Origin: an uncultured Acidobacteriota bacterium
GTDB taxonomy: Bacteria > Acidobacteriota > Vicinamibacteria > Vicinamibacterales > UBA2999
Length of the DNA: 64,000 nt
Direction of reading: 5' to 3'
Assembly: GCA_963731785.1 (NCBI GenBank)
Contig: CAVSWX010000021.1
Span: 1,893 to 65,892, forward strand
Shown: one piece after another, positions 22,399-38,241 of the stretch
Layout of the letters: each line of letters starts with the position of its first letter
Numbering within the stretch: position 1 is the stretch's first letter
Made by a program: the position numbers and the translations under genes
The notes under the pieces: generated by a model
Databases searched by the model: none
Told to the model about the DNA's origin: nothing
What the model saw: the letters and a program-made list of their open reading frames with translations, nothing else

Positions 22399-25300
22399 AT
22401 GAACCTGTCGTCGATCTTCATCGCGCGGCCGGTCACGACCACCCTGCTGATGCTGGGCATCCTGGTGTTCGGCACGCTCGCCTACCAGGAGCTGCCCGTC
22501 GCCGATCTGCCGAGCGTGGACTTCCCGACCATCCGCGTGCAGGCGTCGCTGCCCGGAGCCAGCCCGGAAACGATGGCGTCGTCGGTGGCGCTGCCGCTCG
22601 AGAAGCAGTTCACCTCGATTCCGGGTCTGACCAGCATCAACTCCAGCAGCACGCAGGGCGGCACCGACATCACGTTGCAGTTCGACTTGAGCCGCAACAT
22701 CGACGCCGCGGCGCAGGACGTGCAGTCGATGATCGGGCGGGCCTCGCGCCAGCTGCCGCCGCAGATGCCGGCGCCGCCCTCGTTCCAGAAGGTCAACCCG
22801 GGCGATCAGTCGATCTTCTTCCTCATCCTGCGATCGTCGACGCTGCCGCTCTCGACGCTCGACGAAATCGCCCAGTCGGTCGTGGCCCAGCGGATCTCGA
22901 TGGTGAGCGGCGTCGCGCAGGTCAACGTGTTCGGCTCGCAGAAGTACGCGGTGCGGATCGACGTCGATCCGCGGGAGCTCGCCGCGCGCTCGATCGGCAT
23001 CGACGAAGTGGCGTCGTCGGTGCAGAACGCCAACTCGAACCTGCCGACCGGGACCATCTACGGCGAGAAGTCCTTCGTCGTCCAGACCAACGGCCAGTTG
23101 ATGCGGGCGGCGGCCTACGGCCCGACGATCATCTCCTACCGCGGCGGCAACCCGGTGCGGCTCGACGAGGTGGCGCACGTCTTCGACGGCGTCGAGAACG
23201 ACAAGACGGCCGCCTGGTCGAACGGCGAGCGCTGCATCTATCTGCCGGTGCAGAAGCAGCCGGGCGTCAACGTCGTCCAGGTGGTCGATGCCATCAAGGC
23301 GCTCCTGCCCTCGATCGAAGCGCAGTTGCCCGCGTCGGTCAGCCTCGACGTGCGCAGCGACCGCTCGCTGACGATCAAGGAGTCGGTGCACGACGTCAAG
23401 CTGACGCTGCTCGTGACCGTCGGCCTCGTCGTCCTCGTCATCTTCCTGTTCCTTCGCAACCTGTCGGCGACGCTCATCCCCAGCCTGGCCCTGCCCGGAG
23501 CGCTGGTGGGCACGTTCTCGGTGATGTACCTGCTCGGCTACAGCCTCGACAACCTGTCGCTGATGGCGCTCACGCTCTCGGTCGGCTTCGTCGTGGACGA
23601 CGCCATCGTGATGCTCGAGAACATCGTGCGCCACATGGAGATGGGCAAGCCGCCGATGCAGGCGGCCTACGACGGCTCGCGGGAGATTGCCTTCACGATT
23701 CTGTCGATGACGGTGTCGCTCGTCGCCGTCTTCATTCCGGTGCTGTTCCTCGGCGGCATCGTCGGCCGGCTGCTGCACGAGTTCGCCATCACGATCACGG
23801 CGGCGATTCTCGTCTCGGGCTTCGTGTCGATCAGCCTCACGCCGATGATGTGCAGCCGGTTCCTGAAGCCGCCGCACGAGCACGGCCGGCTCTACAACGC
23901 GTTCGAGGCGGTGTTCGATGCCTGGCGCCGGCTCTACGACATCACGCTGCGCGGCACGCTGCGCTACCGCGCGGTGACGATGGTGGTGTCGATCGTCCTG
24001 CTCGGCGCGACCGTCTACCTGTTTGCCATCGTCCCGAAGGGCTTCCTGCCGAGCGAGGATCAGGGCCGCTTCAACGTCAACACCGAGGGCGCGCAGGGCA
24101 TCAGCTTCGAGGAGATGGTTCGCCATCACAATCAGGTGGCCGACATCGTCATGGCCGACGAGACCGTCCTCGGCGTCAGTTCGAACGTCGGGTCCGATCG
24201 GCAACAACGCGACCGGCGGTTCGAATCAGGGCCGCATGTTCGTCGAGCTGAAGCCGCGCGATCAGCGCACCGAGAGCGTCGACGAGGTCATCCAGCGGCT
24301 GCGGCCCCGCCTGTCGGACATTCCGGGCCTCCGGGTCTTCATGCTCAACCAGCCGCCGATCAATCTCGGTGGCGGCGGCGGCGGGCAGCGAGCGCTGTAT
24401 CAGTTCACGTTGCAGGATACCGACACCGACGAGCTCTACAAGTGGGCGCCGGTGCTCGAGGCCAAGGTCCGGCAGATGCCCGGCTTCGAGGACGTCAACA
24501 GCGACCTGCTGTTGAACAATCCGCAGGTGCGGGTGGACATGGACCGCGACAAGCTGTCCACGTTGGGCTTGACGGCGACGCAGGTCGAGAACGCGCTCTA
24601 CAACGCCTACGGCACCCGTCAGGTCTCCCAGATCTACGCGCCGAACAATCAGTACCAGGTCATCTTGCGGGTCGATCCGAAGTTCCAGACCGACCCGGCG
24701 GCGATGTCGCTGCTCTACGTGCGGTCGAACAGCGGGCGGCTGATCCCGCTCGAATCGGTGGCCCGGCTCAGGACCGACGTGGGGCCGACCCAGGTCAATC
24801 ACTTCGGTCAGTTGCCGTCGGTGACGATCGGCTTCAATCTGAGGCCGGGGTTCGCGCTCGGTGACGCCGTCTCGCAGATTCAGATCGCGGCTGCCGAGAC
24901 GCTCCCGTCCACGGTGACGGTCGCGTTCCAGGGCGCGGCCCAGGCGTTCCAGGATTCGTTCCGCGGCCTCGGGCTCGTGCTGCTGATGGCCATCGTCGTC
25001 ATCTACATCGTGCTGGGCGTGCTCTACGAGAGCTTCACGCACCCGCTGACGATTCTCTCGGGCCTGCCCGCGGCGGGCCTCGGCGCGCTGCTCACGCTGA
25101 TGCTGTTCGGCGCCGAGCTCAACCTCTACGCGTTCGTCGGCGTGATCATGCTCGTGGGCCTGGTGAAGAAGAACGGCATCATGATGGTGGACTTCGCCGT
25201 CGAGGCCCAGAAGCTCGGGCAAGACGCCGACCGAGGCGATCCACGAGGCCTGCCTCGTGCGCTTCCGGCCGATCATGATGACCACGATGGCCGCGCTCGT

Positions 25301-25558
25301 GGGCACGCTGCCGATCGCGTTGGGTCTGGGCGCCGGGGCCGAGGCGCGGCGTCCGCTCGGCCTGGCGGTCGTGGGCGGCCTGCTCGTGTCGCAGCTCCTG
25401 ACGCTCTACATCACGCCGGTCTACTACAGCTACATCGAGGGCCTGCGCCTCCGCCTGGCGCGCAAGCGCGCTCCGGCGCCGGTCCGACGTCGAAGCGCAC
25501 CCGGCCCCGTCCCCGGCCGAAGGCATGGCCCGCAGCGCGCAGCTCGTCGAGCCGGTAG
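22399..25558 (+). CDS. efflux RND transporter permease (AcrB/MdtB-like, HAE1) (at least 2-3 apparent frameshifts; 3' end approximate)
   Basis: [25 protein letters not shown]...(ORF 22399..24864), then ...[17 protein letters not shown]...[32 protein letters not shown] (ORF 24023..25558), then [25 protein letters not shown]...[13 protein letters not shown] (ORF 25257..). Confidence 0.88.
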
Positions 25559-25624
25559 GCGTAGGGCGGCGTCGGCGGCCGTCAGGGCCCGGCGGAGGAC
25601 CTGGCCGCGGGTCTCCAGACCCGC
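25552..25624. repeat. degenerate 9-bp-periodic array plus GC hairpin between convergent genes
   Basis: GCCGGTAGG CGTAGGGCG GCGTCGGCG GCCGTCAGG GCCCGGCGG, followed by the hairpin GCGGGTCT-CC-AGACCCGC (25607-25624). It has the same architecture as 45472-45533. Confidence 0.55.
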
Positions 25625-25631
25625 CTCGTCA

Positions 25632-26183
25632 CTACCGCGGCTCGGACGACGGCGGGACGATGTCCTTCATCCGCATGTAGCTCACCACGTTGCCGTAGTG
25701 CTCGGTGTTGTGGCCGTAGTTGAGCACCAGCAGGCCCATGCGCAGCGACTGCGTCCGCCGTCCGTTCTCCTGCGTGATGGTCAGCACTTCCTGCCCCGAC
25801 GCATCCGTCAGCGCCGCATAGACGCCGTCGCAGTAGGCGAGCGCGTCGTTGACGGCCTTCACCAGCGCCGCCTTGCTGGCGATCTTCTCGAAGTCGGTTC
25901 CTGCGCCCGGGTTCTTCTCGCCCTTGGCCTGCGAGCACCACAGGTAGTTGTAGTTGGCCAGATGGCCAATCAACTGGCCGAAGGTGCGGACCTCGGTCTG
26001 CGTCCCGGGCCGCATGCCATAGAGCTCCTCGGGCATCTTCTCGGCCGCGCGAGCGATGTAGTTGCGGTTGTTGGTGTAGGCGCCGCGCAGCCACGACGAC
26101 ATGGTCGGCGCCGGCGGGGTCTGCGCCAACGCGGCGGTGGCGAACGACAGAGCGAGGACGACGAGGGCCAGCGCCGTTTTCAT
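25632..26183 (-). CDS. DinB family protein (secreted)
   Basis: Last 183 codons of ORF 25632..26282, from ATG 26181-26183: [21 protein letters not shown]...[17 protein letters not shown]...[19 protein letters not shown] (DinB His triad context). Confidence 0.75.
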
Positions 26184-26278
26184 GGAGCGGAATGTACACC
26201 ACCCCGCGTATCCACCGACGCTCCAGCTCGGCGGCCTGGAACAACCTCGAGGTCGACGCGTAGCCACGCCCGCAGGCG

Positions 26279-27768
26279 TCACTTCAAGTCGAACGTCTTC
26301 TCCGCGGACTCATCCTTGATCGCCGTGCGGAGCACGGCGCGGGTCGTGGTCGTCGGCAGGTCGAACACGACCGTGCCCGTGGTCGTCGTCATCGGCTCCA
26401 TGGTCTCGTTCGGGAACTGGAACGGCGCGTACTGTTCGCCGCCGGCCGAGACCCGCATCGTGATCACGCCGGTGTGCAAGCCGTAACGTCCGCGGTTCTC
26501 CAAGCGAATCGTCAGGGTGAGCCGCAGGACGTTGGCGAACCGGCGGCTCGACGCCCGAAGCAGCGTCACGCCGACGTCGGTGGTGTCCAGCAGCGGCATC
26601 GGGTCGCGGACCACCGCCGCCGTGATGGCCTGAGCGCCGGAATCGGCAATCTCCGCCTGCTCGTCCACCGGAGGCCGGCCGGTCGGCGACAGATCCAGCG
26701 GAATCTCGGCCGTCTCCTGTTGCCGGCCGACGAGGCGCAACGTGCCGGCGCGCATCTGCGGCCGGAGCCGGAACGTGACGATGCCGTACCGCAGCGAATT
26801 GCCTGGCACCGACGTGTTGAGGCCGCTGGTCGGGCTGAGCATGTCGCCGCCGACCGCGAGCCGGAACGAGTCGTCCCAGAACCCGACGTCGTAGCGGCCG
26901 AAATTCATCAGCCGCATGCGCAGGCGCAGCTCCGGCGTGTCGCCGCGCATGACCACGTTGCCCGACACGACGGCGTAGATCGCGTCGCCGAACGCGGCCT
27001 CGGCGATCCGGGGGATGTCGATGGTGTATGGCGATCCGCCTGCCGCGGAGATCGGCGGCCCGGCCGGCACGGAGGAGGCCGCGGCGCGTGGACGCCGGGG
27101 CGCGCGTCGCCGCGTCGCCGCCGCCGGCGGGCGTCGAGGCGCCACCGCCTGGTTCCGCGGGCGGAGCCCCCGGGTCGCCGGCCTCGCCGCCCGACCGCCG
27201 GTTTCCGTTGAACAGCAGCAGCCCCACGATCACGATGGCCAGACGCCGCCGCCACCCACAGCCGCGCCGCAGAGATCGGTGCGTCGGCGCGCGTCGGGTC
27301 CACCGCGCCGGTCGCCGACTCGATCACCCCGACCAGCCGATCGACGTCGGCGTCCCAGGTCTCGTCGCGAACGGTCACCGCGTGCCGCCGGGCCAGCGGA
27401 CGGATGTTCTCCGGCAGCTCCGCCGAGACCGGCATCGACGCGCCTTCGACCAGCACCGGCACCACCAGCACGTTCGGGCGGGTGAGCGCCGCGGCGATCT
27501 CGAGCCGCACGAAGTCGTACGGTTCGTCGAGCCGGCGGCTGCCGGTCATGTCGCGGGCGCCGACCCACTCGCGCCCGATGACGGCCAGCATGACGCGGCA
27601 GTCGTTGAGGCGCGACTCGATCGCCTGCACGAAGTCCTGTCCGGGACGCAGGGTATCGACGTCGCGAAACACCCGTGACGCGCCGAGCCGCCGTTCGAGC
27701 GACTCGCGCAGCCGGCCCGCGTAGCCCGCCGCGTCCTCGCGGCGGTAGCTGATGAAAGTTCCGGCCAT
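26279..27768 (-). CDS. TIR domain protein with a single TM helix and two C-terminal beta-sandwich-like repeats (two apparent frameshifts in the linker)
   Basis: ATG 27766-27768 behind a GAGGA RBS: [46 protein letters not shown]...[12 protein letters not shown]...[11 protein letters not shown] (ORF 26908..27834). Then [15 protein letters not shown] (ORF 26310..27233 frame, nt ~27210-27254). Then two repeats in ORF 26279..27145 (...[34 protein letters not shown]... / ...[35 protein letters not shown]...). Confidence 0.75.
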
Positions 27769-27864
27769 CCGTCCTCTGGGGGAGGAGCGTCCGATTATAA
27801 CGGCCGCTCGAGCCGGTCCGTCTTCATCTTGCACACGTTCGACGGGTGGCCGTATGGTGGAAGG

Positions 27865-28889
27865 ATGCGCGACCCGATCATCCAGACGTCCCCGCTCGGC
27901 TCACGATGGCAGACGTCCGATCCGTTCCTCTTCTGCGTTCATCACATCGATCACTATCCGCGGGGCAACGACCGGCTGGGGCCCGACGCACCGCTGGCGG
28001 GCCACGACGTCGGGCAGGACTTCGAGGGCCACGGACGGCTGGCGGATGTATCACGGCGACGTGGTGCCGGGCTTCCCGCAGCACCCGCACCGCGGTTTCG
28101 AGACCGTGACCATCGTTCGCACCGGCTACATCGATCACTCCGACTCGCTCGGCGCCACGGCACGCTTCGGGATGGGCGACGTGCAGTGGCTCACGGCCGG
28201 GGCCGGCGTGGTGCACTCGGAGATGTTCCCGCTCCTCCACGCGGACCGGCCGAACGATCTCGAGCTGTTTCAGATCTGGCTGAACCTGCCCGGCCGCGAC
28301 AAGCTGGTGGCGCCGTATTTCACGATGTTCTGGGACCAGGACATCCCACGGGCCGTCCATCGCGACGCCAACGGCCGCACGGTGACGATCACGGTGATCG
28401 CCGGCGCGCTCGACGGGCTGCAGCCGCTGGCGCCGCCGCCCAATTCGTGGGCGGCGAGTCCCGAAGCGGACGTGGCCATCTGGTCGATCGCGCTCGAGCC
28501 CGGCGCGTCGTGGGTGGTGCCGCCGGCCGCGTGATGCCTCGACCATCCGGACGCTGCATCTGTTCCGCGGCACGGCGCTCAAAGTGGGAGAGCGGATCGT
28601 GCCGGGCCCGTCCGCCATCCAGGTGCACGCCGATCAGGCGGTGCCCCTCGAGGCCGTCGACGGCGCCGCCGAAGTGCTGCTGCTGCAAGGGAGGCCGATC
28701 GGCGAGCCGGTCGCGCAGTACGGCCCGTTCGTGATGAACACCCGCGCCGAGCTGGAGCAGGCGTTCCAGGACTACCGGCGCACGCAGTTCGGCGGCTGGC
28801 CGTTTCCCGAGAACGCGCCTGTCCACCCGCGCGACCGCGGCCGCTTCGCCCGTCACGCCGACGGCAGGGTCGAGGAGGCGGGCGCCTGA
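27865..28889 (+). CDS. pirin family protein (2-3 apparent frameshifts)
   Basis: [31 protein letters not shown] (ORF 27829..) joins [63 protein letters not shown] (ORF 27752..28534). It ends with ...[44 protein letters not shown] (ORF 28584..28889). Confidence 0.85.
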
Positions 28890-29344
28890 CGGTGCGCCTC
28901 GAAGAACCCGCGCCAGAAGAAGCCGTTCTGGAACGCGACCAGATACACCATCAGTTTCGGCGTGGCCAGAGCCCCCGAGGCGTTGAGGTCGGCGACGACC
29001 CCCAGCAGCGGGATGAACACGATCGGCGACGCGAAGATCGGCATGAAGAACGCCGAGGGGTCGAACCGGTAATCGCGCGTGCGGGCCTGATCGAAGCCGT
29101 CCTGGGCCGCCATCCCCAGCAGCATGGCGCCGTAGCAGAAGACGATCGCCAGCGTCTCGTGCAGCGATCCCTTGGCCTCGACCTGCTCCGGGAACGCATA
29201 GCCGAGCACGAGCGCTGCAAGCGCCGTGAGCGCGGCGGCCTGGATCACCCGGCGCGGACGCTTCACCACCAGGTTCACATACCAGACGCACACCAGTAAT
29301 CCCGCCACCGAGGCGGCGAGTACCCACGACAGGACCCACGACAT
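28853..29344 (-). CDS. small polytopic membrane protein (about 4 TM), last gene of the caspase operon
   Basis: Last 163 codons of ORF 28853..29815, from ATG 29342-29344 behind a GGAGGAGG RBS and 20 nt after the caspase gene stop (TAA 29365-29367): MSWVLSWVLAASVAGLLVCVWYV...IVFCYGAMLLGMAA...FFMPIFASPIVFIPLLGVV...LMVYLVAFQNGFFW. No family recognised. Confidence 0.55.
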   Translation of the reverse strand: MSWVLSWVLAASVAGLLVCVWYVNLVVKRPRRVIQAAALTALAALVLGYAFPEQVEAKGSLHETLAIVFCYGAMLLGMAAQDGFDQARTRDYRFDPSAFFMPIFASPIVFIPLLGVVADLNASGALATPKLMVYLVAFQNGFFWRGFFEAHRQAPASSTLPSA

Positions 29345-29364
29345 CGCTGCCTCCTCGCCATCCG

Positions 29365-30787
29365 TTATTGCACGAAGACGAACTCGCCCCGGCTCGCCCC
29401 GCCCGGCCCGAGGTCCAGGAACATCGGCGAGAGCTCGCGGTTGGCCCGGCGCGCCTCGCGCTCGACCGCCGGTCGCAGCCACACGTAGAGCTCGCGTGCG
29501 GTCACGATCCGGTCCTTGTAGAGGTCGGCTTCGCGGCGAAGCCCGGTGAGCAGCTCCTCGGTGAAGAGGCTCCCGTTCCATCGCGTGCCGCCGAACGACT
29601 GCTGGCCCGCGGTGCCGGCCATCAGCATGTAGCGCGCCGGTCCGCGCGCCATGCGGTTGAGCGCTTCGGCATCGACCTTGGGGTTCGGCTGGCGAATCGT
29701 GTTGGACTTCATCTCCATGCCGTCCACCGCGAGGCCGCTGAAGCACGAGTCGAGCACCACCATCAGGTGCTCCACGCTCAGGCCTTGAGCCACCGCACCA
29801 GGTCGAGCATCGCAATCGAGTTGCGGTGGCGCCCGTCGTCGATCTCGACGGCCAGCGGCAGGAACCCGCGTGTGGCCGTGCCGCTGCCGTCGGTGATGCC
29901 GTGACCGGAGTAGTAGAACAGGAACCGGTCGTTCGCCTGCATCTTGCCTTGCAGATAGCGCTGCGGATGGCGGAACGCGTCGAGCGTCACCTGGTCGTCG
30001 ACGAGCGTCACCACCTCGTCGAAGCCTTGCGCGTCGAGGTACTCCTTCATCTTGAGGACGTCCTGCGCCGGCGAGGCGAGCGGCGCCATGTGGCGGTACT
30101 TCCCGATGCCCACGACGAGGGCGTAGCTCTTGTTGAACGCGGGCGGTGTCGGCGACAGGTACGTCGTCCACAGCTCCCACAGGCGCGCAGTAAAGCTCGG
30201 GCGATCCGGCGCCTTGGCCTCGACGCCGACCTTCGAGGTGGCGAGCATCTGCGGCTGGAGGCCGTCCACCTCGAACAGGAGCACGCCGTTGAAACCCGAG
30301 GCGCTGAAGCCCGGCGGGCGCAGGAAGTACACGAGCCCGTGGCGTTCGGCGCCCGGAGCGAGACGCCCGCTCGCCAGCTGCTTCCCGGCCAGCGCCGATT
30401 CGAGCGCGCCGGGATGAAACGCCGACGACTGGCGGCCGATGAACCGCAACACGCTTGGCATCCGCTTCATCTTGCGGATCTCGCTGGCGACGGCGGCTGC
30501 CGCCAGCGGCCGCAGCGTGGTGTCGCCGCCGAGTCCCAGCCGCACCGCCTCGTAGTCGAGCGCCACGCGCTTCGGTGGAAGTGTTGCGAACGGTCACCGC
30601 CACCGGCAGCGCTCGCGAGCCGCCGAGCAGCGGGTCGACGGCGGACGGATCGAGGTACTCCAGACGGACCGCCAGCGCACCGCTGCGCTGGCCGGTCAGC
30701 TGGAACTCCATCTGCCGCGCCGTCTGCGCCAGGCGTCGCCCGCGAGCAGCAGGGTCGAGCCACGCCGCGATCGGTGCGCGCGACCAT
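29365..30787 (-). CDS. caspase family (peptidase C14) protein with N-terminal beta-sandwich-like domain (at least 2 apparent frameshifts; N-terminus unresolved)
   Basis: ORF 29778..30566: ...KSYALVVGIGKYRHMAPL...DRFLFYYSGHGITDG (His codon 29901-29903). It joins the frame of ORF 29365..31983: GLSVEHLMVVLDSCFSGLAV (Cys codon 29743-29745) ...GEFVFVQ*. The N-terminal part is MEFQLTGQRSGALAVRLEYLDPSAV...ALPVAVTVRNTSTE / VALDYEAVRLGLGGDTTLRP. Candidate ATG at 30785-30787, 13 nt after the upstream stop. Confidence 0.8.
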
Positions 30788-30800
30788 GATGCGGGCCGCG

Positions 30801-31968
30801 TCAGAAGCCGAAGTGGCCCTGGAAGAACACCGAATGCGCGTCGAGGCCGCGAGCCCTCGACACGTTTGTAGCCGACGTCCACCGGGGTGTGCCCGCCAAC
30901 GAGATACGACACGCTGGCGATGACGAGCCACGGCGCCGGCCGGTCTTCGGCTGCCGGCGAGCCGAGCGGGACCGTGTGCAGGAATTTGCCGTTCAGCGAC
31001 GTGCGCGAGGTCAGCGCGTAGCCGCCGACCACGCCGTAGGCGAGGTCCCAGGCCACCCCGCGCTCGTTGACCGCGTCGGCGAGCATCCGCATTTCGTCGG
31101 CGATGAGGCCGGTGGGCACCAGGCTCTTCGACGCCTGCAGCAGTCCGGCGCCGGCAATACGGACCTTGTCGAAGTCCTTGTGCGCCGACGACCAGACACC
31201 GCCGCCGAGATCGAACGAGCCGAAATCGAGCGTGTCGCCGTGCGCGTAGAGCGCACCGTAGCGAGCGTTGACGCCGACCCGTACGGGCAGCGGCGCTTCG
31301 ATCTCGATCGATGGATGGTAATCGGCGCCGACGGAGAAGGAACGCGTGCTGGTCTGCCGCAGCGTCCCGAGGTTCTCGTGCTGCTGGGTGACGCGGCCCT
31401 GGATGCCCATGTGGATCCCTTCGAGCCGGTAGAGGCCTTGCCAGGCGTGGCCGGTCTGGCCCGGCGTGTCGATCTGCTCGAACTCGAGCAGCCCGGCGGC
31501 GGTTCCGCGAACCATCGCGTTGCCGCGGCGCACGGCGGTGATGTCGAGCGCGGTCGTCAGCAGGAACTGCTGCGAGTAGGTCTGGGCCGCGTCGCGGCCG
31601 GTGACGCTCTCGGAGATGCTCGAGGGGAAGAGCAGCGCGAGGATCGCGCCGGCGTTGTCGTTCACCCAGCGGTTGAAGGCCGCGCGCGAGGGGTCGAGGT
31701 CGGCCGGGAGACTCGAGGGACTGGCCGTTGCGCGAGATGCGGAAAGCGGAAATCTGGTCAGCCGCGCCGAGCGACGCGCCCACGCCGTCCAGATTGAGCA
31801 CGGTGGCCTCGATGGTGCCGCCGTAGATCTGGCCGTTGACGATCTGGACCGGCGCATCCTCGACGCCGTTCCACAGGGCCAGGACCGCGTCGCCGATGGA
31901 ATTCTGCGCGGAGAGCCGGGGCCGCGCCGATGAGAAGTGCTCCGACGAGGGCCGACCGCGAACTTCAT
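30801..31968 (-). CDS. outer-membrane beta-barrel protein (several apparent frameshifts), first gene of the caspase operon
   Basis: ATG 31966-31968 (MKF...). A shifted frame gives the signal-like ALVGALLIGAAPALRAE. The long middle part lies in the frame of ORF 29365..31983 (...GLYRLEGIHMGIQGRV...SFSVGADYHPSIEIEA...VRVGVNARYGALYAHG...WDLAYGVVGGYALTS...). A third frame ends ...LDAHSVFFQGHFGF* with stop TCA 30801-30803, the aromatic C-terminus typical of OMPs. Confidence 0.55.
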
Positions 31969-32093
31969 GACGTTGTCCTCCACGCGGCGGGAACAGCCGC
32001 TCTATGAAGGACAACGGGAGAGGTGCCCGGACCGCACAGCAGTGCGGTCCGGGGCAGAGGGGCTTGAAACGGGCGCCCTGGGGCCCGTGGAAT

Positions 32094-32910
32094 CTACGAC
32101 TTCTTCGTGGCGCTCCAGCTCGCGCCGGCGCTGGTCGTGCCCTTCATCGAGTTGCCGTTCACCTTGCCGGTGTAGGTGGCGCCGTTGGCCGCGAAGGAGA
32201 TGTCCTCACCCGTCAGGCGGCCGTTGCTGATCGGCGCCGAGCCCATGCGTGCCGCCGAGCACCTGGAACTCCTGCGTGAGGGTGAGCGTGTTGGTGCCGA
32301 GCTGCCAGGTGCCCGCGGCCTTGGCCGGCACGATCCACAGGTAGGCCGTGCACCAGCTGGTGCAGTCGCCGGTCACCGACGGCGGTCTCGTCGGCCTGCC
32401 AGGTGTCCATCGTGAACGAGTTCGACACGATGCGCGTGCCCGGCTTCATGTTCAGGATGGTCGGCCGCAGCCGCAGGTTGATCGACGGCAGCAGGAACAT
32501 CGTGACGACCTGCGCCTTCGAGAAGTCGGTCTCGAAGAGGTCGGCCTTGACGAAGGTCGCCTTGTCGCGACGCCGGCCGCGGTCGGCGTTGCGCTTCGAC
32601 AGCTCCACCATGTCGGGGTTGTATTCGATGCCCTGCGCCTTCAGGCCGCGCTTGGCGGCGGTGATGACCGTGCGGCCGTCGCCCGAGCCGAGGTCGATCA
32701 GGTAATCCTGCGGCGTGACCTTGGCCAGGTCGAGCATCTTCTCGACCAGCGCCTGCGGCGTGGGCACCCACACCACGTCCTTGCCCGGCTGTCCGACGCT
32801 CGGCTCGAACGGCTTGGTGCCGGGCGCGGCCTGGGCCAGGGCCAGCGACGAAACCACGCACGAGAGAGCAGCCGTCAGACGGCAACGCGAACAGAACGGG
32901 ACACGAGCAT
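32094..32910 (-). CDS. secreted class I SAM-dependent methyltransferase with a Cys-containing C-terminal beta domain (apparent frameshifts)
   Basis: ORF 32213..32956: signal LTAALSCVVSSLALAQA, then VVWVPTPQALVEKMLDLAKVTPQDYLIDLGSGDGRTVITAAKRGLKAQGIEYNPDMV (motif I) ...VVTMFLLPSINLRLRP...GTRIVSNSF. My own translation of the next frame gives TGDCTSWCTAYLWIVPAKAAGTWQLG...ISNGRLTGEDISFAANGATYTGKVNGNSMKGTTSAGASWSATKKS*, with stop at 32094-32096. Confidence 0.65.
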
Positions 32911-33145
32911 CACGGTCGTCTCCAGGATGAAAGCGAAATGGCCGCCGGCCGCACACACGCGGTCCGGTCCGGCTCGAAGCGGAAATACGATTACTCGCGC
33001 GGGCACCGTTTCACCAAATGTTTCTTGCGGCGCATAAGCGGCGAATCGCCGCAAACAGCTGAGCTCGTGCGACTTCCGCTTGATTCGGCGCCAGTTCTGC
33101 AGTTCGATAACGCGCCATGCAGAGGTCGATCTCCGGGACGCCCGC

Positions 33146-36021
33146 ATGAGCATGCAGGCACCGGCGACGCCGGTCACGTCCGAACGAGGTCCACGCCCGC
33201 GAGCGCAGCCATCACCTCGAGAAGTCGCCTGACGAGCCGCTGGTCGGGCTCGCGCTCTCGGGCGGCGGCATCCGCAGCGCCATGTTTCGGGCTCGGCGTG
33301 CTGCAGGCGCTGCATAAGCTGGAGCTCTTCCGAGCACCTCGACTACGTCTCCACCGTGTCGGGCGGCGGCTATATCGGCGGCTGGCTCCAGGCCGCCGTT
33401 GGCCAACGGGCGGCTGGCCGCGCCATCGAGCTCGAACGGCGAGGAGCCGCGCGAGATCCGCTTCCTTCGCGCCTACAGCAACTACCTCACGCCGAAGCTG
33501 GGGCTGTTCAGCGGCGACACCTGGGCGGCGGTCGGCAACAGCCTGCGCAACCTGATTCTCAACTTCACGATTCTGAGCCTCTCGCTGCTCGCGCCGCTCT
33601 ACCTGCCGTGGCTGGCTGCGGCCGTGTTCTGGGCAGCTCGTGCCCGACCCCGGCCGACGTGCCGCTGGCTGGTCGGCGGCCGCGGGGCTGCTGTTCGCGC
33701 TGGTCGTGGCGGCGAGCATCGCGAACATGGCGCGGCCGCTGCGCGCGGCGGCCGGCACCACGTCGGGCGCCTCGCACGGCGACCGCGCACGGGTGTATGC
33801 CACGGTGATCGTCCCGGCGCTCGTGGCGACCTGGCTCGTCAGCACCGTGATGTGGGCGTGGGCCCGCGACCGGCTGACTTCCGAGCGGCGCGGACCGGGC
33901 TGGACGCCGCGCTGGCGGTGCGCTGGGCTACGCCGCCGTGTGGACGGCCGGTCTCGTCGCCGGCTTCAGGTGGCGGCGATCGGGCGCGGCCTCTCGCAGA
34001 CGCGAGCACTGCGTGGTACGTGCGCGTCCATCCGGCGTCGGTCTGGTGCTGGTGGTCAGCGGCGCCGTGGCCGGGTGGCTCGGCACGTTCCTCATGGGGC
34101 TGGCGACGCACGCGCTGGCGTTCGGCCGCGAGGCCGGGGCGCAGTCGTGGCTGGCCGGGCTGCTGGCGTTTCCGATCGTGCCTCGTGCCTGATGCTGGCG
34201 GTGTCGGCACACATCGGCTCTGGCCGGCGATGCCATGTCGGACGGGACGCGCGAGTGGTGGGGACGGGTCGGCGGCGTGCAGCTGCTGATCTCGCTCGTC
34301 CTGATCGTCGTCGGCGCTGCTGGCCCTGCGTCGGCCCGCACATCTTCGATCTGCATGCGCCAGCATGGCGGCCTGGCTCGATCATGCACGAGATCTCGGT
34401 CGAAGACGGCGCTCGAGTGCGGCGTGGGCCGTGCTCACCGGCGACCGGCGTGCTGGCGGGCCGCTCGCAGCAGACGGGGACCGGGCGGCGGCAACCGCCT
34501 GCTCGAACTGGCGGGCCGGGTCGGCGCCGGTGGTGTTCGTGTTCGGCTACCTGCTCATCCTCGCGACGCTTCATGCACCGCGCCGTCCCGCAGTGTCGCC
34601 GATCGCGTCCTGGCGGCGACGGCATTCCGCGACCTTCTCGCTGTGCGAGGTCGAAGCGCACCTGCAGGCGCGGCCGCCAGCGGCCGGCCGCTGGGCCGAC
34701 GTGCTCGCGGCCGGATAGGCGCCGCGGCGGCGCCGCTGCCGATGGGACGCCGGGATGCCGGCGTGCAGCGCCGTGTGCACGCGGCGCCGCCGGCGGCGCA
34801 TCGGCGGGCTGCTGTTGATGCTGCTCGAGCTCGGGCGTGCTGGCCTGGCTGATGTCGTGGCAGGTCAACCTGAACGAGTTCTCGCTCCACACGTTCTATC
34901 GCAACCGCCTGGTGCGCTGCTTCCTCGGCGCCTCGCGCACGCGCGACGCCGCATCCGTTCACCGGGTTCGACGACAAGGACGACGTGCCCCTGGCGGAGC
35001 TGGCCACCCGACGCGCCCGACGGCCGCATCCGGCCGTATCCGATCTTCAACGCCGCCATCAACCTGGTGGCGGGCAAGAACCTCGCGTGGCAGGAGCGCA
35101 AGGCGGCATCGTTCGTGTTCACGCCGGAGTACTGCGGGTTCGAATACCGCGACGACGACGATCCGCCCGCCGAGCGGAAGGCGGCGGCGACGCGCGCCGC
35201 GGAGGACCGCGGCGGTGCAGCAGAAGGCGGACGACAGCGGCGTGGTCACGCGCCGGCCCGCGACGCCGGCGTGAAGCGCCTCAGCGCCTACGCACGTACG
35301 TCGCGAGCACGCCGAGCGATCCGCCGCTCGCTCACGATGGGGCTGGCCATCGCCACCTCGGGCGCCGCCGCCTCGCCCAACATGGGCTACCACTGCTCGC
35401 CGACGCTGGCGTTCCTGATGACGGTGTTCAACGTCCGTCTGGGCTGGTGGCTGCGCAATCCGCGCTTCCCGAGCCGTGTGGACCGACGCGAAGCACCCGC
35501 CTGTCGCTGCGCGAGCTGCTCTACGAGCTGCTCGGCATGACGACCGACGACAAGAAGTGGGTGTATCTCTCGGACGGCGGCCACTTCGAGAACCTCGGCG
35601 TCTACGAGCTGGTGCGGCGCCGCTGCCGGCTGATCATCGCCTGCGATGCCGGACAGGACGGCGACGTCACCTTCGAGGATCTCGGCAACGCCATCGAGCG
35701 GTGCCGCGCCGACTTCGGCGTGAACATCGAGATCGATCTGGGCAACCTGCGCGCCCGGCGCCGATGCCGCTCGCGAATGGCACTGCGCGATCGGCACCAT
35801 CCGCTACGACCGCCTGCCGCCGCGTGAAGGAGGGCGACCCCGCTCGAGGTGCCGGGGACGCTGCTCTACATCAAGACGCTCGCTCACCGGCGACGAGCCG
35901 GCCGACGTCCTCCGCTACGCCGCCGAGCACCCGGCCTTTCCCCACGAGTCCACGCAGCGACCAGTTCTTCGACGAGTCGCAGTTCGAGAGCTACCGCGCG
36001 CTGGGCTTCCACGCCGTCTGA
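33146..36021 (+). CDS. patatin-like phospholipase with a large polytopic membrane insertion between the Ser and Asp motifs (many apparent frameshifts)
   Basis: Joined fragments: LVGLALSGGGIRSAMF (oxyanion GGGxR, 33261-33275), DYVSTVSGGGYIGGW (nucleophile Ser codon 33359-33361), REIRFLRAYSNYLTPKLGLFSGDTW. About 8 hydrophobic segments follow across 33540-34860. Then NLNEFSLHTFYRNRLVRCFLGAS, YPIFNAAINLVAGKNLAWQERKAASFVFTP, LAIATSGAAASPNMGYH, WVYLSDGGHFENLGVYELVRRRCRLIIACDAGQD (Asp codon 35573-35575), and ...FPHEST.DQFFDESQFESYRALGFHAV, with TGA at 36019-36021. Confidence 0.75.
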
Positions 36022-37163
36022 CGAGGCGTTCAGCAGCGCCTTCGCGCGCCGAGGAGTGCCGCCGCGCTCGCCGACGTCGAGATCTTCACGCTGCTGCGGC
36101 AGCGCTGGGGCAAGCCGGCGCCGGCGCCGCCCGACGCGCTGCGGAAGTACTCCGGCGGCGCTCGAGCGCATCTGGACCACCGTCCGCACCACGGAGAGCC
36201 TCACGTTCCTCGACAGCCAGATGTTCCCGGAGATGCCGGCGCTCATGGGCGTGCCGCACGGCCGCATGCACCGGAGCAGCCGGGACGGCCGCGCCGGTAC
36301 CCGACGTCAACTACTGGCTGCCGCCATCGGACGAGGAGCGCCGCGAGGGCTTCTACGTCTGCGTCCAGATGCTGCAGCTGATGGAGGACGTGTTCCTCGA
36401 CTTCGACCTCGACGAGCACTACGACCACATCGACAACCGCGGCTGGATGAACCTGTTCCAGCACTGGGCGTGGTCGGGCATGCTGTGCGCGACCTGGGCG
36501 ATGACCGGCTCCACGTTCGACCCGCGGTTCCAGCGGTTCTGCATGGACGCGGCTCGATCTGCGGCCCGGGCGTCCCTTCGGTGGCCGACATGCAGGCGGC
36601 CATCACGTTGCCCGACCCCGATCGAGTGGCGGCAGTGGAGCCTGGCCGGCGAACGCGGCGCAGCACGGACGCTGCTCGCCGAGTGGCAGAGCCGCGACGG
36701 TCTCAATTTCTGGGAAGCCGAGCTCGTGGACGAAGTACATGCGCGCCACCCGGCACCCGGTGCAGCGGCTGTTTCCGATTTACGTCACGGTCGAGAGCCC
36801 GCGCCGGTCCGACGGCAATCCCGCTGCGCTTCAACGTCGGCTACATCATCGGCGACGTCGTGGTGGCGCCGGGCGTGGCTCCGCGCGTTCGTCCTGCACT
36901 ACATGCGCATCCAGAACCACCTGCGGAAGATGGGGCTGGCCCGCGACGCGCTCATGTCGCTGCGGCGGACGCTCGGCGTCGAGATCGACGTCGGCGATCC
37001 GTTGTTCGACCCTGCGCGTCGCCGACGGCACGGCCTCGGACGAAGCGCTGCCGTCGGCCGACGCGGCTCGTGCGCCTGCGCGCCATCGTCCGTTCGCTCC
37101 CGCGTATGTGAGCGGCGCGCGCCGCCTGACCCCGCCGACGGCTCGGGTACAATGACGCGCTGA
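36022..37163 (+). CDS. unassigned coding region: either a C-terminal extension of the patatin protein or a separate gene (frameshifted)
   Basis: Protein-like strings are spread over three frames: LADVEIFTLLRQRWGKPAPAPPDALRKY; ALERIWTTVRTTESLTFLDSQMFPEMPALMG; EGFYVCVQMLQLMEDVFLDFDLDEHYDHIDNRGWMNLFQHWAWSGMLCATWAMTGSTFDPRFQRFCMD; LAEWQSRDGLNFWEAELVDEVH; RFNVGYIIGDVVVAPG; FVLHYMRIQNHLRKMGLARDALMSLRRTLGVEIDV. No family recognised. Confidence 0.35.
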
Positions 37164-38241
37164 TGACCTATACCCCAATCGAAAGAATGCGCGCGGCGCG
37201 CGCGCTGCGTCGCGGCCTGGCGATTGCCGCCGTGGCGCTCCGGCCGCCGGTCTCGGCGCCCCGGCGGGCAGGCGGCAGCGGCACAAGGCGCGCCCGGGCG
37301 CACCGCGGCCCCTCCCGCACCACGCGACCGCCATCCCCCTCGAGGTCGTGCAACTTACGGCCCGAGTTCTACGCCATCGTCGGCGCCGGCGCCAACATCG
37401 CCGTGCAGTTCGGGCCCGACGGCGTGGTCGTCGTGGACACCGGGTCGGGCGAGCGGTCGGCCGACGTCGTCGCCGAGATCAGGAAGCTCACGCCGCGGCC
37501 CGATCCGCTACATCATCAACACCAGCGCCCACCGCGATCACGTCGGCGGCAACGACGAGCTGTCGAAGGCGGGGCAGTCGGTGATTCCCACCGGCGGTCT
37601 CAACGAGATCGGCGCCGCCGGCGGGCGCGCGCCCATCCTGGCCGAGGAGCACGTGCAGGCGGCGATGACCGCGCCGCACCGGCGAGCAGGCGCCGTTTCC
37701 CGTCGGCGCGTGGCCGACGGTGACCTACTCGTCGGACCTGATGGAAACGCAGAAGGACCTCTACTTCAACGGCGAGGCCATCATCACGAGCTACCAGCCC
37801 AACGCCTATCTCGGACGGCGACAGCGTGGTGTTCTTCCGCCGCTCGGACGTGGTCGTGACCGGCGAGGTCTACGACCCGACGCGGTTCCCGCGCATCGAT
37901 CTCGAGAAGGGCGGCAGCATCCAGGGCGTGATCGACGCGCTCAACCGCATCATCGCCATCACCGTGCCGCCGATTCCGCTGGTCTGGCAGGAGGGCGGCA
38001 CGATCGTCGTCGGCGCGCACGGCGTCATCGGCCACGAGGCCGACGTGGTGGACTACCGCGACATGGTGACGATCGTCCGCGACCGCGTGCAGGACGGGAT
38101 CAAGAAGGGGCAGACGCTGGCGCAGATTCGGCAGGCCGATCCGGTCAAGGGCTATCGCCGGCCGCTTCGGCGCCGACAGCGGGCCCGTGGACGACCAACC
38201 AGTTCATCGAGGCGGTCTACAAGAGCCTCGGAGGCAAGTAG
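37163..38241 (+). CDS. MBL-fold metallo-hydrolase, secreted (several apparent frameshifts)
   Basis: EFYAIVGAGANIAVQFGPDGVVVVDTGSGERSADVVAEIRKLT / IRYIINTSAHRDHVGGNDELSKAG (HxHxDH-like motif with the first His as Ser) / DSVVFFRRSDVVVTGEVYD...GTIVVGAHGVIGHEADVVDYRDMV / ...WTTNQFIEAVYKSLGGK*. These fragments come from ORFs 37163.., 37224.., 37720.. and 37826... Confidence 0.7.

Follow-up and report, generated by a model that had tools for sequence, protein, structure and literature searches.

Does the minus-strand locus at 26279..27768 of the window (the whole 64,000-nt stretch of DNA analysed here) encode one membrane protein that joins a TIR domain to repeats outside the cytoplasm, as an earlier note had proposed, and what would such a protein do? 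We found that the TIR domain, the transmembrane (TM) helix and the repeats almost certainly form a single fused protein. The best overall reading, which we hold with evenly balanced confidence, is a single-pass receptor in which periplasmic input would cluster the TIR domains and lead to NAD+ cleavage. The features of the locus are as follows.

26279..27768, minus strand: whole gene, encoding TIR, TM helix, stalk and two beta-sandwiches (ORFs, GC3 frame plot, match to protein P0001, DNA alignment to relative L001)
27304..27768, minus strand: TIR domain, residues 1-155, SARM1-like subtype with N-terminal FISYRR (Pfam TIR_2, AF2 fold, Foldseek, phmmer)
27499..27501, minus strand: codon of Glu90, the putative catalytic Glu, in the motif DFVRLEI (alignment to the Glu of SARM1 WVHKEI; invariance)
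27210..27267, minus strand: single TM helix, [18 protein letters not shown] (Kyte-Doolittle 19-mer; AF2 helix 167-187)
27245..27245, minus strand: frame break 1, a single C that L001 lacks, within the TM helix (pairwise DNA alignment)
27032..27209, minus strand: disordered Ala/Gly/Ser/Pro-rich stalk of ~50 aa, holding frame break 2 (pLDDT, family composition, indel position)
26690..27031, minus strand: predicted extracytoplasmic beta-sandwich domain 1, putatively of the DUF4352 superfamily (AF2 strands 13-115 of the C-terminal model; repeat; DUF4352 links)
26627..26689, minus strand: conserved acidic inter-domain segment, [16 protein letters not shown] (identity 0.67; D376 invariant)
26282..26626, minus strand: predicted extracytoplasmic beta-sandwich domain 2, putatively of the DUF4352 superfamily (AF2 strands 139-250; homology to domain 1)

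The ORF listing contains three minus-strand ORFs over this locus (26908..27834, 26310..27233 and 26279..27145), and third-position GC revealed that the coding frame moves twice, running in frame 0 from 27768 to ~27300, in frame 1 over ~27315-27135 and in frame 2 from ~27090 to 26279; the call is ambiguous at ~27180-27130, where all three frames are GC3-rich. Break positions were taken from a DNA alignment to the relative L001. Besides the extra C at 27245, this alignment placed the second break in the linker or stalk, as a 5-nt deletion at ~27086 with a net shift of 1 nt, and detected an in-frame 3-nt insertion at 26720-26722. The joining of three ORF fragments through two frame shifts, as first suggested, was thereby borne out by the ORFs, the frame plot and a full-length intact homologue. 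The frame-corrected product is ~497-498 aa long and ends at the stop codon 26279-26281 on the minus strand; apart from the two shifts, the gene is free of stops. Two frame-disrupting indels in the window sequence could also mean that the breaks are genuine, so that the locus would be a pseudogene or separate genes and the TIR domain and repeats would not be one protein in the host organism. A comparison of 11.6 kb, covering eight genes, with an Illumina relative revealed indels of non-3n length in 8/8 genes, with 1-nt insertions in the window making up 110 of the 160 gaps. The AcrB and pirin genes in the window are likewise visibly split in the ORF listing, whereas the present gene has no further stops and its product is 94% identical to an intact homologue, all of which leaves genuine breaks a negligible chance. 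Because non-3n indels occurred in every gene compared over 11.6 kb, we judge both breaks to be assembly errors and the gene itself to be real and one unit. A programmed frameshift or pseudogene was rejected, given that similar indels are found in every neighbouring gene and are shared by no homologue.

The intact homologue, P0001 (496 aa), shares 94% of its residues with the joined 498-aa query, at 100% coverage (E 9e-297). Over 100 other homologues, 455-512 aa long and mostly from Vicinamibacterales (Acidobacteriota), aligned over ~95-100% of the query, and intact full-length homologues span 46-94% identity. One full-length member, HEV8397268.1 (481 aa, 72% identical), is listed at NCBI as 'toll/interleukin-1 receptor domain-containing protein [Vicinamibacterales bacterium]'; this annotation covers the TIR domain alone, and no description of the TM helix, ectodomain or function of this protein was found. 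Mean pairwise identity is 0.73 in the TIR domain, versus 0.57 and 0.43 in the ectodomain sandwiches. The gene family is a conserved, vertically inherited, stand-alone family of Vicinamibacterales. The host of the window sequence is a soil bacterium.

The N-terminal domain is a TIR domain, as had been claimed: Pfam TIR_2 (PF13676) matched residues 5-146 over profile positions 2-122 of 122 with 53.6 bits, above the gathering threshold of 28 (E 4e-14). By fold and by sequence alike, the best PDB match was the TIR domain of SARM1, an animal NAD+ hydrolase (PDB 6O0Q, 6O0U, 7ANW); it was the closest solved structure in Foldseek (TM-score 0.83-0.88), and phmmer aligned it across the full TIR domain (E 0.0015). 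The two proteins share FISYRR, the BB-loop Gly and an aromatic-x-x-x-Glu motif (WVHKE in SARM1, FVRLE here), although identity is just ~23%. Their architectures also differ, since SARM1 is an ARM-SAM-TIR protein with a C-terminal TIR domain, whereas here the TIR domain is N-terminal and precedes a TM helix and the periplasmic domains. In SARM1, the SAM domains drive oligomerisation, and regulation by NMN/NAD+ takes place in the cytosol. The Glu codon had been placed correctly at 27499-27501: E90 has no exception among 82 family members or among 80 genome-derived relatives, and F5, Y8, R9, R10, D36 and G43 are invariant along with it in the 80 genome relatives. The domain thus combines a Glu at the catalytic position with SARM1-type pocket residues, and on these sequence grounds we lean towards an active NADase. 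Conservation of E90 is nonetheless no guarantee of catalysis, because a Glu at this position is also frequent in some non-enzymatic TLR TIR domains, as described by Toshchakov and Neuwald (PMC7075850).

Since Glu conservation does not always track activity (PMC7075850), many TIR domains are scaffolds, and Ig-like DUF4352 domains serve as generic modules for binding or structure, the protein might instead be a non-enzymatic scaffold or anchor, with the TIR domain serving as an interaction module, the beta-sandwiches binding cell wall or envelope, and no NAD+ chemistry. However, the SARM1-type pocket set (FISYRR, BB-loop Gly, aromatic plus Glu) is invariant across phyla, which is hard to explain without catalysis and makes this alternative highly improbable. 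The protein can also be compared with the TIR enzymes of bacterial defence (ThsB of Thoeris, TIR-STING, TIR-SAVED, AbTir, SpbK and PycTIR), which are likewise of TIR_2 type with a catalytic Glu; PADLOC/NCBIfam models gave weak partial matches over residues ~5-62 (ThsB1, E 8e-7; ThcB4, 35.9 bits). Those enzymes are soluble, sense nucleotides or cues in the cytosol and are usually encoded with operon partners, whereas the window protein combines a TM helix with a periplasmic module and lacks a conserved partner. Membership in Thoeris (ThsB) was rejected, as all scores fall far short of the family cut-offs (220 bits for NCBIfam ThcB4) and neither ThsA nor a conserved neighbour turned up in 17 loci. 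The earlier remark that the known TIR defence proteins of bacteria are cytosolic holds broadly, although a survey of E. coli lists one TIR system in which a TM element is present (PMC11350192).

In the correct frame, the TM helix reads ARLWVAA(G/A)[11 protein letters not shown] (19 residues). It is the top Kyte-Doolittle 19-mer, scoring 2.34 in P0001 and 2.38 on average across the family, where it falls at residues ~166-180 in 81 of 82 sequences; the second-best hydrophobic segment scores <=2.02. AF2 also placed a helix at residues 167-187. The protein has no signal peptide, and the K/R residues flanking the helix number 2.7 on the N-terminal side versus 2.2 on the C-terminal side; the N-terminal flank, where acidic residues are also scarcer, carries a net positive charge. 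One hydrophobic helix (Kyte-Doolittle and AF2), the missing signal peptide and the charge bias are the marks of a bitopic, N-in protein, and show that the locus product is one bitopic inner-membrane protein. The single TM helix and the Pro/Gly/Ala-rich linker behind it, both anticipated from the raw sequence, were confirmed; pLDDT falls below 50 for residues 189-231 in the AF2 model, and the stalk varies from 22 to 164 aa across the family (mean 42).

With respect to topology, the TIR domain probably lies inside and the ectodomain outside. The conclusion of the earlier note on this point stands, but its reason does not: the 'WRRR' basic patch is an out-of-frame artefact, read upstream of the inserted base, and the real K/R bias (2.7 vs 2.2) is modest. 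The stronger argument for a cytoplasmic TIR domain is a folded 165-residue N-terminal domain that lacks a signal peptide. Acidobacteria are diderm, so the repeats are better called periplasmic than surface domains.

The C-terminal half had no match in direct Pfam, NCBIfam and PADLOC searches, and neither it nor the whole window protein matched PF11611 (DUF4352) at E<=1. A profile search of PDB sequences with this half returned a lone chance match to SusD (E 1.2), and a PDB fold search gave just generic tandem Ig/FnIII matches (RbmA, YcdA, WxLIP). Two tandem repeats of ~110 aa, as originally described, were recovered when the two domains were compared with each other by BLASTP (80 aa at 26% identity, E 3e-6) and in the AlphaFold C-terminal model, which contains two beta-sandwiches (pLDDT 93.6). 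The acidic segment between them has a mean pairwise identity of 0.67, above that of either sandwich. The initial guess of a 'DUF4352-like' fold gained ground in two ways: PF11611 was matched by 16 of 90 family representatives recruited with the profile of the window protein (best E 4.9e-7), and the top viral matches in a BFVD fold search were phage DUF4352 proteins (E 3.3e-8). This transitive and structural link supports, at the superfamily level only, a predicted ectodomain of two rigidly packed, divergent DUF4352-superfamily domains. M. smegmatis, too, has a membrane protein with a DUF4352-type beta-sandwich at its C-terminus; this protein, Mpr (multicopy phage resistance), acts against phages, its DUF4352 domain promotes oligomerisation, and phage escape was mapped to a minor tail protein (PMC12596739). 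In contrast to the window protein, Mpr has no TIR domain, and a nuclease with nucleotide chemistry is reported as its output; the Mpr domain is a distant relative of the window ectodomain, at superfamily level only.

The two-domain ectodomain is not confined to this family. Behind a TM helix, it was also found in the Ser/Thr protein kinases P0220 and P0223 (25% identity over 265 aa, E 2e-15), and ectodomains of the window type follow a TM helix on EAD7 proteins and divergent TIR proteins. The same TIR subtype with its TM helix carries PASTA (E 1.6e-11), ASH/HYDIN-type Ig or FGE-sulfatase (E 7e-65) ectodomains in proteins from Betaproteobacteria and Chloroflexi, and a clear hydrophobic helix lies directly after the TIR domain in 60 of 72 proteins of this type. 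Judged by sequence, the window protein belongs to a wider 'TIR-TM-variable ectodomain' class present in several phyla. Its architectural logic is identical to that of receptor Ser/Thr kinases of the PknB type (kinase, TM helix, sensor ectodomain), and modules are shared in both directions, with the window ectodomain on P0220 and P0223 and PASTA, the classic PknB sensor, on TIR cousins; the output is a kinase there and a TIR domain here. PASTA is a cell-wall-binding sensor typical of growth-control kinases, and EAD7 is a conflict-system adaptor. We tentatively suggest a group of bacterial single-pass 'receptor TIRs' in Acidobacteriota, one Gemmatimonadales MAG, Betaproteobacteria and Chloroflexi, each with a conserved SARM1-like TIR domain lying immediately inside the membrane, one TM helix and an interchangeable periplasmic sensor (DUF4352-like sandwiches, PASTA, ASH-type Ig or FGE-sulfatase), that might turn an extracytoplasmic event into NAD+ cleavage or signalling through ligand-induced clustering. 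If this is true, the events converted could be, for example, phage contact or a cell-wall signal.

Animal IL-1R and Toll-like receptors offer a comparison, since they share with the window protein a single-pass layout, a cytosolic TIR domain, outside-in logic and Ig-like ectodomains, of which IL-1R has one or three (PMC7075850). Their order is opposite, however: they are type I proteins with a C-terminal TIR domain, whereas the window protein is type II (N-in, TIR first). Their ectodomains are Ig-superfamily or LRR domains, unrelated to the DUF4352-like one here, and animal receptor TIR domains are scaffolds, whereas that of the window protein looks enzymatic. Membership in the TLR/IL-1R family was accordingly rejected (TIR-TM-ectodomain order with a DUF4352-like ectodomain, rather than type I with N-terminal LRR or Ig domains), and the resemblance is convergent, not homologous. 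A full-text literature search found no paper on bacterial TIR-TM-ectodomain receptors.

In the receptor reading that we prefer, the ectodomain would be the input and the TIR domain the output. A multivalent or abundant periplasmic cue, such as phage tail or ejected proteins, cell-wall fragments or another envelope component, would bind and cluster the ectodomains, which would bring the TIR domains together. In TIR NADases, an active site arises only through TIR-TIR assembly, as established for SARM1, AbTir, TIR-STING and TIR-SAVED. Once assembled, the TIR domains would cleave NAD+, resulting either in its depletion (growth arrest or abortive infection) or in an ADPR-derived signal. Activation through ectodomain-driven clustering is itself a conjecture that we rate somewhat below even. 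The long disordered stalk and the acidic inter-domain segment could also be cleavage sites, in which case the TM helix and ectodomain would hold the TIR domain monomeric and inactive until proteolysis, by site-1/site-2 cleavage as for anti-sigma factors or by a phage-triggered protease, freed it to self-assemble and deplete NAD+. A precedent is amoeba TirC, whose toxicity is unleashed when its TM tether is removed and for which proteolytic release has been proposed (PMC13142454). No protease is consistently linked to the present gene, however, and a nearby caspase-like gene occurs only in the window and its closest relative; release by cleavage is thus improbable, though less so than a pure scaffold.

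Whether a clustered receptor would serve immunity or physiology is a question on which the genomic context bears. All-against-all ORF clustering detected no conserved partner gene in 17 loci; pirin alone recurs, in 5 loci (four closely related ones and L022). The gene stands alone among housekeeping genes, and no defence-island context was found around the loci examined. In Betaproteobacterial cousins, purL and DUF808 are the recurrent neighbours, which we read as synteny rather than a functional module. Relatives keep stable chromosomal positions, beside pirin in Vicinamibacterales and beside purL/DUF808 in Betaproteobacteria. The phage collection contained no match to the protein, and the plasmid collection gave TIR-only matches in only four records (0.2-1.4 Mb). 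Judged by its housekeeping neighbours, the retained synteny and the phage and plasmid searches, the gene is unlike one of a mobile defence island, and the stable positions suit classical mobile immunity less well than they suit a role in housekeeping or physiology. A link to the caspase-like gene, along the lines of type IV Thoeris, was also considered and rejected, as the three-gene insert is absent from the syntenic L005 site and from all other lineages.

These observations give some weight to a receptor for envelope or physiological signalling, in which the periplasmic domains would monitor a self-derived cue (peptidoglycan fragments, envelope stress or cell density) and the TIR domain would tune NAD+ or make a second messenger for growth or dormancy, like PASTA receptor kinases. 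Syntenic positions that are stable over wide divergence, the housekeeping neighbours, the absence from the phage collection, the mere four TIR-only matches in the plasmid collection, the PASTA-bearing cousins and the Ser/Thr kinases with the same ectodomain all point this way. Against it, to our knowledge nearly all bacterial TIR enzymes characterised so far act in defence or conflict, the ectodomain is also joined to the conflict-system adaptor EAD7, the vicinity yielded no downstream reader of a TIR product, and an antiphage role of DUF4352 is documented in Mpr (PMC12596739). On balance, a non-immune signalling role appears rather unlikely, and phage defence, as opposed to such signalling, is a possibility that we put forward with reserve.

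Characterised bacterial TIR enzymes, as far as we know, are soluble and respond to cytosolic cues. If the receptor reading is true, outside-in TIR signalling, the defining arrangement of animal Toll/IL-1 receptors, would also exist in bacteria, but with an enzymatic SARM1-like output; such proteins would represent a convergent counterpart to IL-1R/TLR signalling in bacteria and a parallel to receptor Ser/Thr kinases with TIR as the output. The finding also has a bearing on the origin of the SARM1-type TIR domain. The core-like, stable genomic position hints that some bacterial TIR domains may serve physiology rather than phage defence. Modular swapping, with the ectodomain on kinases and the TIR domain joined to PASTA or FGE-sulfatase, provides a concrete and testable framework, and cultured relatives (Hydrogenophaga, Thauera, Denitromonas and Dechloromonas isolates) make experiments feasible.

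The window has a G+C content of 69.5%, and the TIR gene lies in it as three overlapping ORFs on the minus strand, which an earlier note had read as fragments of one protein. Our ORF listing returned the same fragments, given here with the other features of the gene:

26908..27834, minus strand, ORF fragment
26310..27233, minus strand, ORF fragment
26279..27145, minus strand, ORF fragment
27499-27501, minus strand, codon of Glu90, putative catalytic residue (SARM1 alignment and invariance)
Residues 248-360 and 383-494, minus-strand gene, beta-sandwiches (AlphaFold2)
27245, minus strand, extra C relative to contig L001 (DNA alignment)
~27086, minus strand, 5-nt deletion relative to L001 (DNA alignment)
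26720-26722, minus strand, in-frame 3-nt insertion relative to L001 (DNA alignment)

Third-position GC placed frame 1 from the ATG at 27768 to ~27300, frame 2 as dominant at ~27315-27135 (with all three frames GC3-rich around 27180-27130), and frame 3 from ~27090 to the stop at 26279-26281. Assembled across the breaks, the fragments gave a 498-aa protein, and a search of 5.8 billion proteins with it had as its top match an intact homologue of 496 aa (P0001; E = 9e-297, 94% identity, 100% query coverage). A further >100 homologues of 455-512 aa were found (46-81% identity, ~95-100% query coverage), few of them named (e.g., HEV8397268.1, [quoted passage not shown]). The frames and P0001 bear out the single protein, and because intact full-length homologues match it, the fusion of TIR domain and repeats is, as judged from sequence, real and conserved. 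We further checked the frame breaks by aligning L001, the Illumina/megahit contig that encodes P0001, to the window (11.6 kb, 26271-37834; 91% identity), and detected 160 gap openings, including 110 1-nt insertions in the window. Indels other than multiples of three occurred in 8 of the 8 genes compared, and the AcrB-type pump and pirin genes beside the TIR gene (24023-25560 and 27829-28889) are also visibly frame-split. Since all compared genes carry similar indels and the neighbours are split too, the breaks in the TIR gene are, on this alignment, assembly noise. Both a pseudogene and programmed frameshifting were rejected, as such indels affect every compared gene. The window is an error-prone assembly in which ORF-based reading fragments most genes. 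The gene of a ~1300-aa protein (~33220-37100, plus strand; orthologue of L001:719-4612) holds 111 of the frame-disrupting gaps, far above its neighbours per kb, and this region may be repetitive or fast-evolving on top of sequencing errors. No Pfam match was found for this protein in L001, and only a weak patatin match was recorded for its orthologue in L005, a further relative's locus.

The N-terminal domain had been called a TIR, and this assignment was upheld by Pfam TIR_2 (residues 5-146, 53.6 bits vs. a cut-off of 28). In an AlphaFold2 model built with an 82-sequence alignment (mean pLDDT 86.6), the TIR fold spans residues 1-155, and the nearest solved structures are SARM1 TIR domains (target-normalised TM-score 0.83-0.88). 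The sequence match to SARM1 (E = 0.0015, whole-domain alignment) also ranks ahead of the bacterial TIRs AbTir and PdTIR (E = 0.27-0.36); in the alignment the two FISYRR motifs coincide, Gly43 stands at the BB-loop Gly, and WVHKE falls on FVRLE. Because WVHKE superposes on FVRLE, Glu90 takes the place of the SARM1 Glu, E642, the catalytic residue of that enzyme. All 82 aligned members have Glu90, so the Glu codon proposed earlier (27499-27501) holds as a position, and F5, Y8, R9, R10, D36, G43, and E90 are all invariant among 80 relatives from species-representative genomes. The product carries the catalytic-type TIR sequence motif, and the invariant pocket residues would fit, short of proving, an active NADase; this Glu is common also in some non-enzymatic TLR TIRs (Toshchakov and Neuwald, PMC7075850). 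Animal SARM1 thus ranks above solved bacterial TIRs by both sequence and fold, with FISYRR identical (TIR domain, 27304-27768). This resemblance may be relevant to the proposal that the SARM1 TIR arose in bacteria; bacterial SARM1 homologues were reported as not found in a 2020 survey (PMC7075850).

The model places a helix at residues 167-187. Hydropathy analysis of the 82 members found no N-terminal signal sequence and a single strong hydrophobic 19-mer (mean Kyte-Doolittle 2.38), located at residues ~166-180 in 81 of them. Thus, of the basic patch and transmembrane (TM) helix described in the earlier note, the helix stood, its true sequence being ARLWVAA(G/A)[11 protein letters not shown]. 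The "WRRR" patch was rejected as a frameshift artefact, since the first frame break falls within the helix and the codons, there read out of frame, really encode W-V-A-A. The positive-inside bias, on which the topology had been based, does exist, though it is modest (K/R 2.7 for the N-terminal flank vs. 2.2 for the C-terminal, with fewer acidic residues on the N side). Stronger support for TIR inside and repeats outside comes from the N-terminal domain itself: by the established rules of membrane-protein topogenesis, a folded, charge-rich domain of 165 residues stays unexported if it lacks a signal peptide. As Acidobacteria have a diderm envelope, "outside" is periplasmic. A stalk follows the helix (pLDDT < 50 at residues 189 to ~231, with low confidence on to ~240).

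Beyond the stalk, the C-terminal 252 residues from the window itself were modelled at pLDDT 93.6 and pTM 0.87, the latter implying that the two sandwiches have a fixed mutual arrangement. One is a homologue of the other (80 residues aligned at 26% identity, E = 3e-6), in agreement with the two beta-patterned repeats first noticed. No match to the window protein in its C-terminal half was found among Pfam, NCBIfam, and PDB sequence models, and a PDB fold search with the ectodomain returned just generic tandem Ig/FnIII-like proteins (e.g., RbmA, B. subtilis YcdA, and WxLIP). An ectodomain profile (18 sequences) searched against 1.84 billion cluster representatives detected 511 proteins at E <= 0.001 (278 at E <= 1e-10). 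Among 90 representatives scanned, 43 contained TIR_2 and 16 matched DUF4352 (best E = 4.9e-7), while the best matches in predicted viral structures were phage "DUF4352 domain-containing" proteins (E = 3.3e-8), with DUF5067 proteins also present. On this evidence the repeats are probably a divergent branch of the DUF4352 superfamily, and the suggested "DUF4352-like" label is supported at the superfamily level only. The acidic segment between the sandwiches, [16 protein letters not shown] (26627-26689; P0001 residues 361-382), has lower prediction confidence and a mean pairwise identity of 0.67, compared with 0.57 and 0.43 in the sandwiches; it might serve in metal binding, in an interaction, or as a cleavage site.

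In the major form of the family, the TIR and TM helix precede two ectodomain copies, and P0157 has three. The ectodomain also occurs with an N-terminal TM anchor alone (~200-aa proteins), behind kinase domains of Ser/Thr type (P0220 and P0223, Pkinase E ~1e-38; P0223 ectodomain, E = 2e-15 at 25% identity across 265 aa), after an EAD7 adaptor domain (P0213), and after divergent TIRs (P0214 and P0243). The best-conserved TIR peptides of the family were then used to scan a genome set with a single member for each GTDB species, and full-length relatives were found in ~15 Vicinamibacterales/Acidobacteriota MAGs and one Gemmatimonadales MAG. The same scan detected dozens of 500-750-aa cousins with other ectodomains (~50% identity over the TIR) in Betaproteobacteria (Hydrogenophaga, Dechloromonas, Thauera, Denitromonas, Accumulibacter, and Propionivibrio) and Chloroflexi. 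A clear hydrophobic helix directly follows the TIR in 60 of the 72 cousins of at least 300 aa, and the C-terminal modules comprise ASH/HYDIN-type Ig with PASTA (E = 1.6e-11) and a conserved terminal domain, FGE-sulfatase (E = 7e-65), or domains without known identity. This modularity is more informative than the other results: one TIR joined to exchangeable ectodomains, and one ectodomain joined to either a TIR or a kinase output, are a receptor signature, in which the outside part would be the input and the inside part the output. Betaproteobacterial cousins (loci L030-L090; e.g., L031:1860-5822, L039:4818-5807, and L075:6001-8244) are arranged as TIR-TM-ASH Ig-(PASTA)-conserved C-terminal domain; for the final domain, the match was DUF3108-like and weak. 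Cultured Hydrogenophaga, Thauera, Denitromonas, and Dechloromonas strains have cousins, and one Caldilineaceae MAG has two paralogues (L043 and L054).

At 13 genome loci and in four metagenomic contexts independent of one another, the genes on either side of the TIR gene are unrelated, run divergently or convergently to it, and are of metabolic or housekeeping type; no restriction, Abi, or mobile-element genes were seen around it. Pirin is the sole recurrent neighbour (5 loci), and its retention beside a relative only 42% identical suggests vertical inheritance. A kinase with the same ectodomain adjoins biotin-synthesis genes. In Betaproteobacteria the chromosomal location of the cousins is conserved, lying downstream of purL and/or the gene of a DUF808 membrane protein. 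With tblastn, 50,697 phage records gave no match, and the plasmid matches numbered just four, all confined to the TIR, on records of 0.2-1.4 Mb. Given the housekeeping neighbours, steady sites, and phage absence, the gene does not resemble the usual mobile occupant of a defence island.

The anatomy of the TIR-TM-ectodomain protein is solid; its mechanism and function are what we infer here. Of the earlier note, the observation stands confirmed and the interpretation supported in part. TIR NADases (SARM1, AbTir, TIR-STING, and TIR-SAVED) are active only once their TIR domains assemble. A membrane-tethered monomeric TIR with a periplasmic binding module would be well suited to ligand-induced clustering as the trigger. 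Proteolysis might instead liberate the TIR from its tether, as work on amoeba TirC suggests by analogy (PMC13142454), but no linked protease was found. For ligand-induced clustering, candidate cues would be phage tail or ejected proteins, by analogy with Mpr, an antiphage DUF4352 protein escaped via tail-protein mutations (PMC12596739), or cell-wall fragments or envelope stress, in keeping with the core-like genomic position and with cousins that bear PASTA. Because a conserved partner gene is absent, the simplest output would be NAD+ depletion, with abortive infection or arrested growth as the result; alternatively, an unlinked protein may read a diffusible ADPR-derived signal.

Among known systems, the product falls outside Thoeris by score and by partner, and outside the TLR/IL-1R family by orientation and ectodomain type. 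IL-1R has a similar layout (Ig-like ectodomains, TM, and TIR) but in reversed order, and we judge the resemblance convergent. The working logic is that of a receptor kinase, with a TIR where the kinase would be. Full-text literature searches did not turn up bacterial TIR-TM-ectodomain receptors; nearest to them came an E. coli survey that mentions a TIR system with a TM (PMC11350192) and an account by Kaur et al. of membrane-proximal conflict systems whose extracellular domains follow the TM (PMC7159879). The gene itself is not new, because its family is already in databases under a generic name; what is new in the architecture, modular relatives, and receptor reading is a variation on a known type. 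This phylum-spanning class, with its putative receptor function, is open to experiment.

Two other segments lie close to the TIR gene. A three-gene insert 1.6 kb away (~28853-32000, minus strand) encodes a 399-aa unknown, a caspase-like Peptidase_C14 protein (~29365-30787; Pfam E = 4.9e-18, PADLOC "caspase" E = 2.8e-15), and a multi-TM protein of 163 aa. The window and L001 both have the insert, which is missing from the syntenic L005 site and unlinked to the TIR gene in other lineages; it is a candidate small conflict module. In the interval that separates the AcrB pump from the TIR gene, 25632-26282 (minus strand) encodes a secreted DinB-like protein, and the same site in L001-L004 (93-94% identical) holds an unrelated 182-aa DUF2007/zinc-ribbon gene on the opposite strand; the DinB-like stretch is a small replaced segment.
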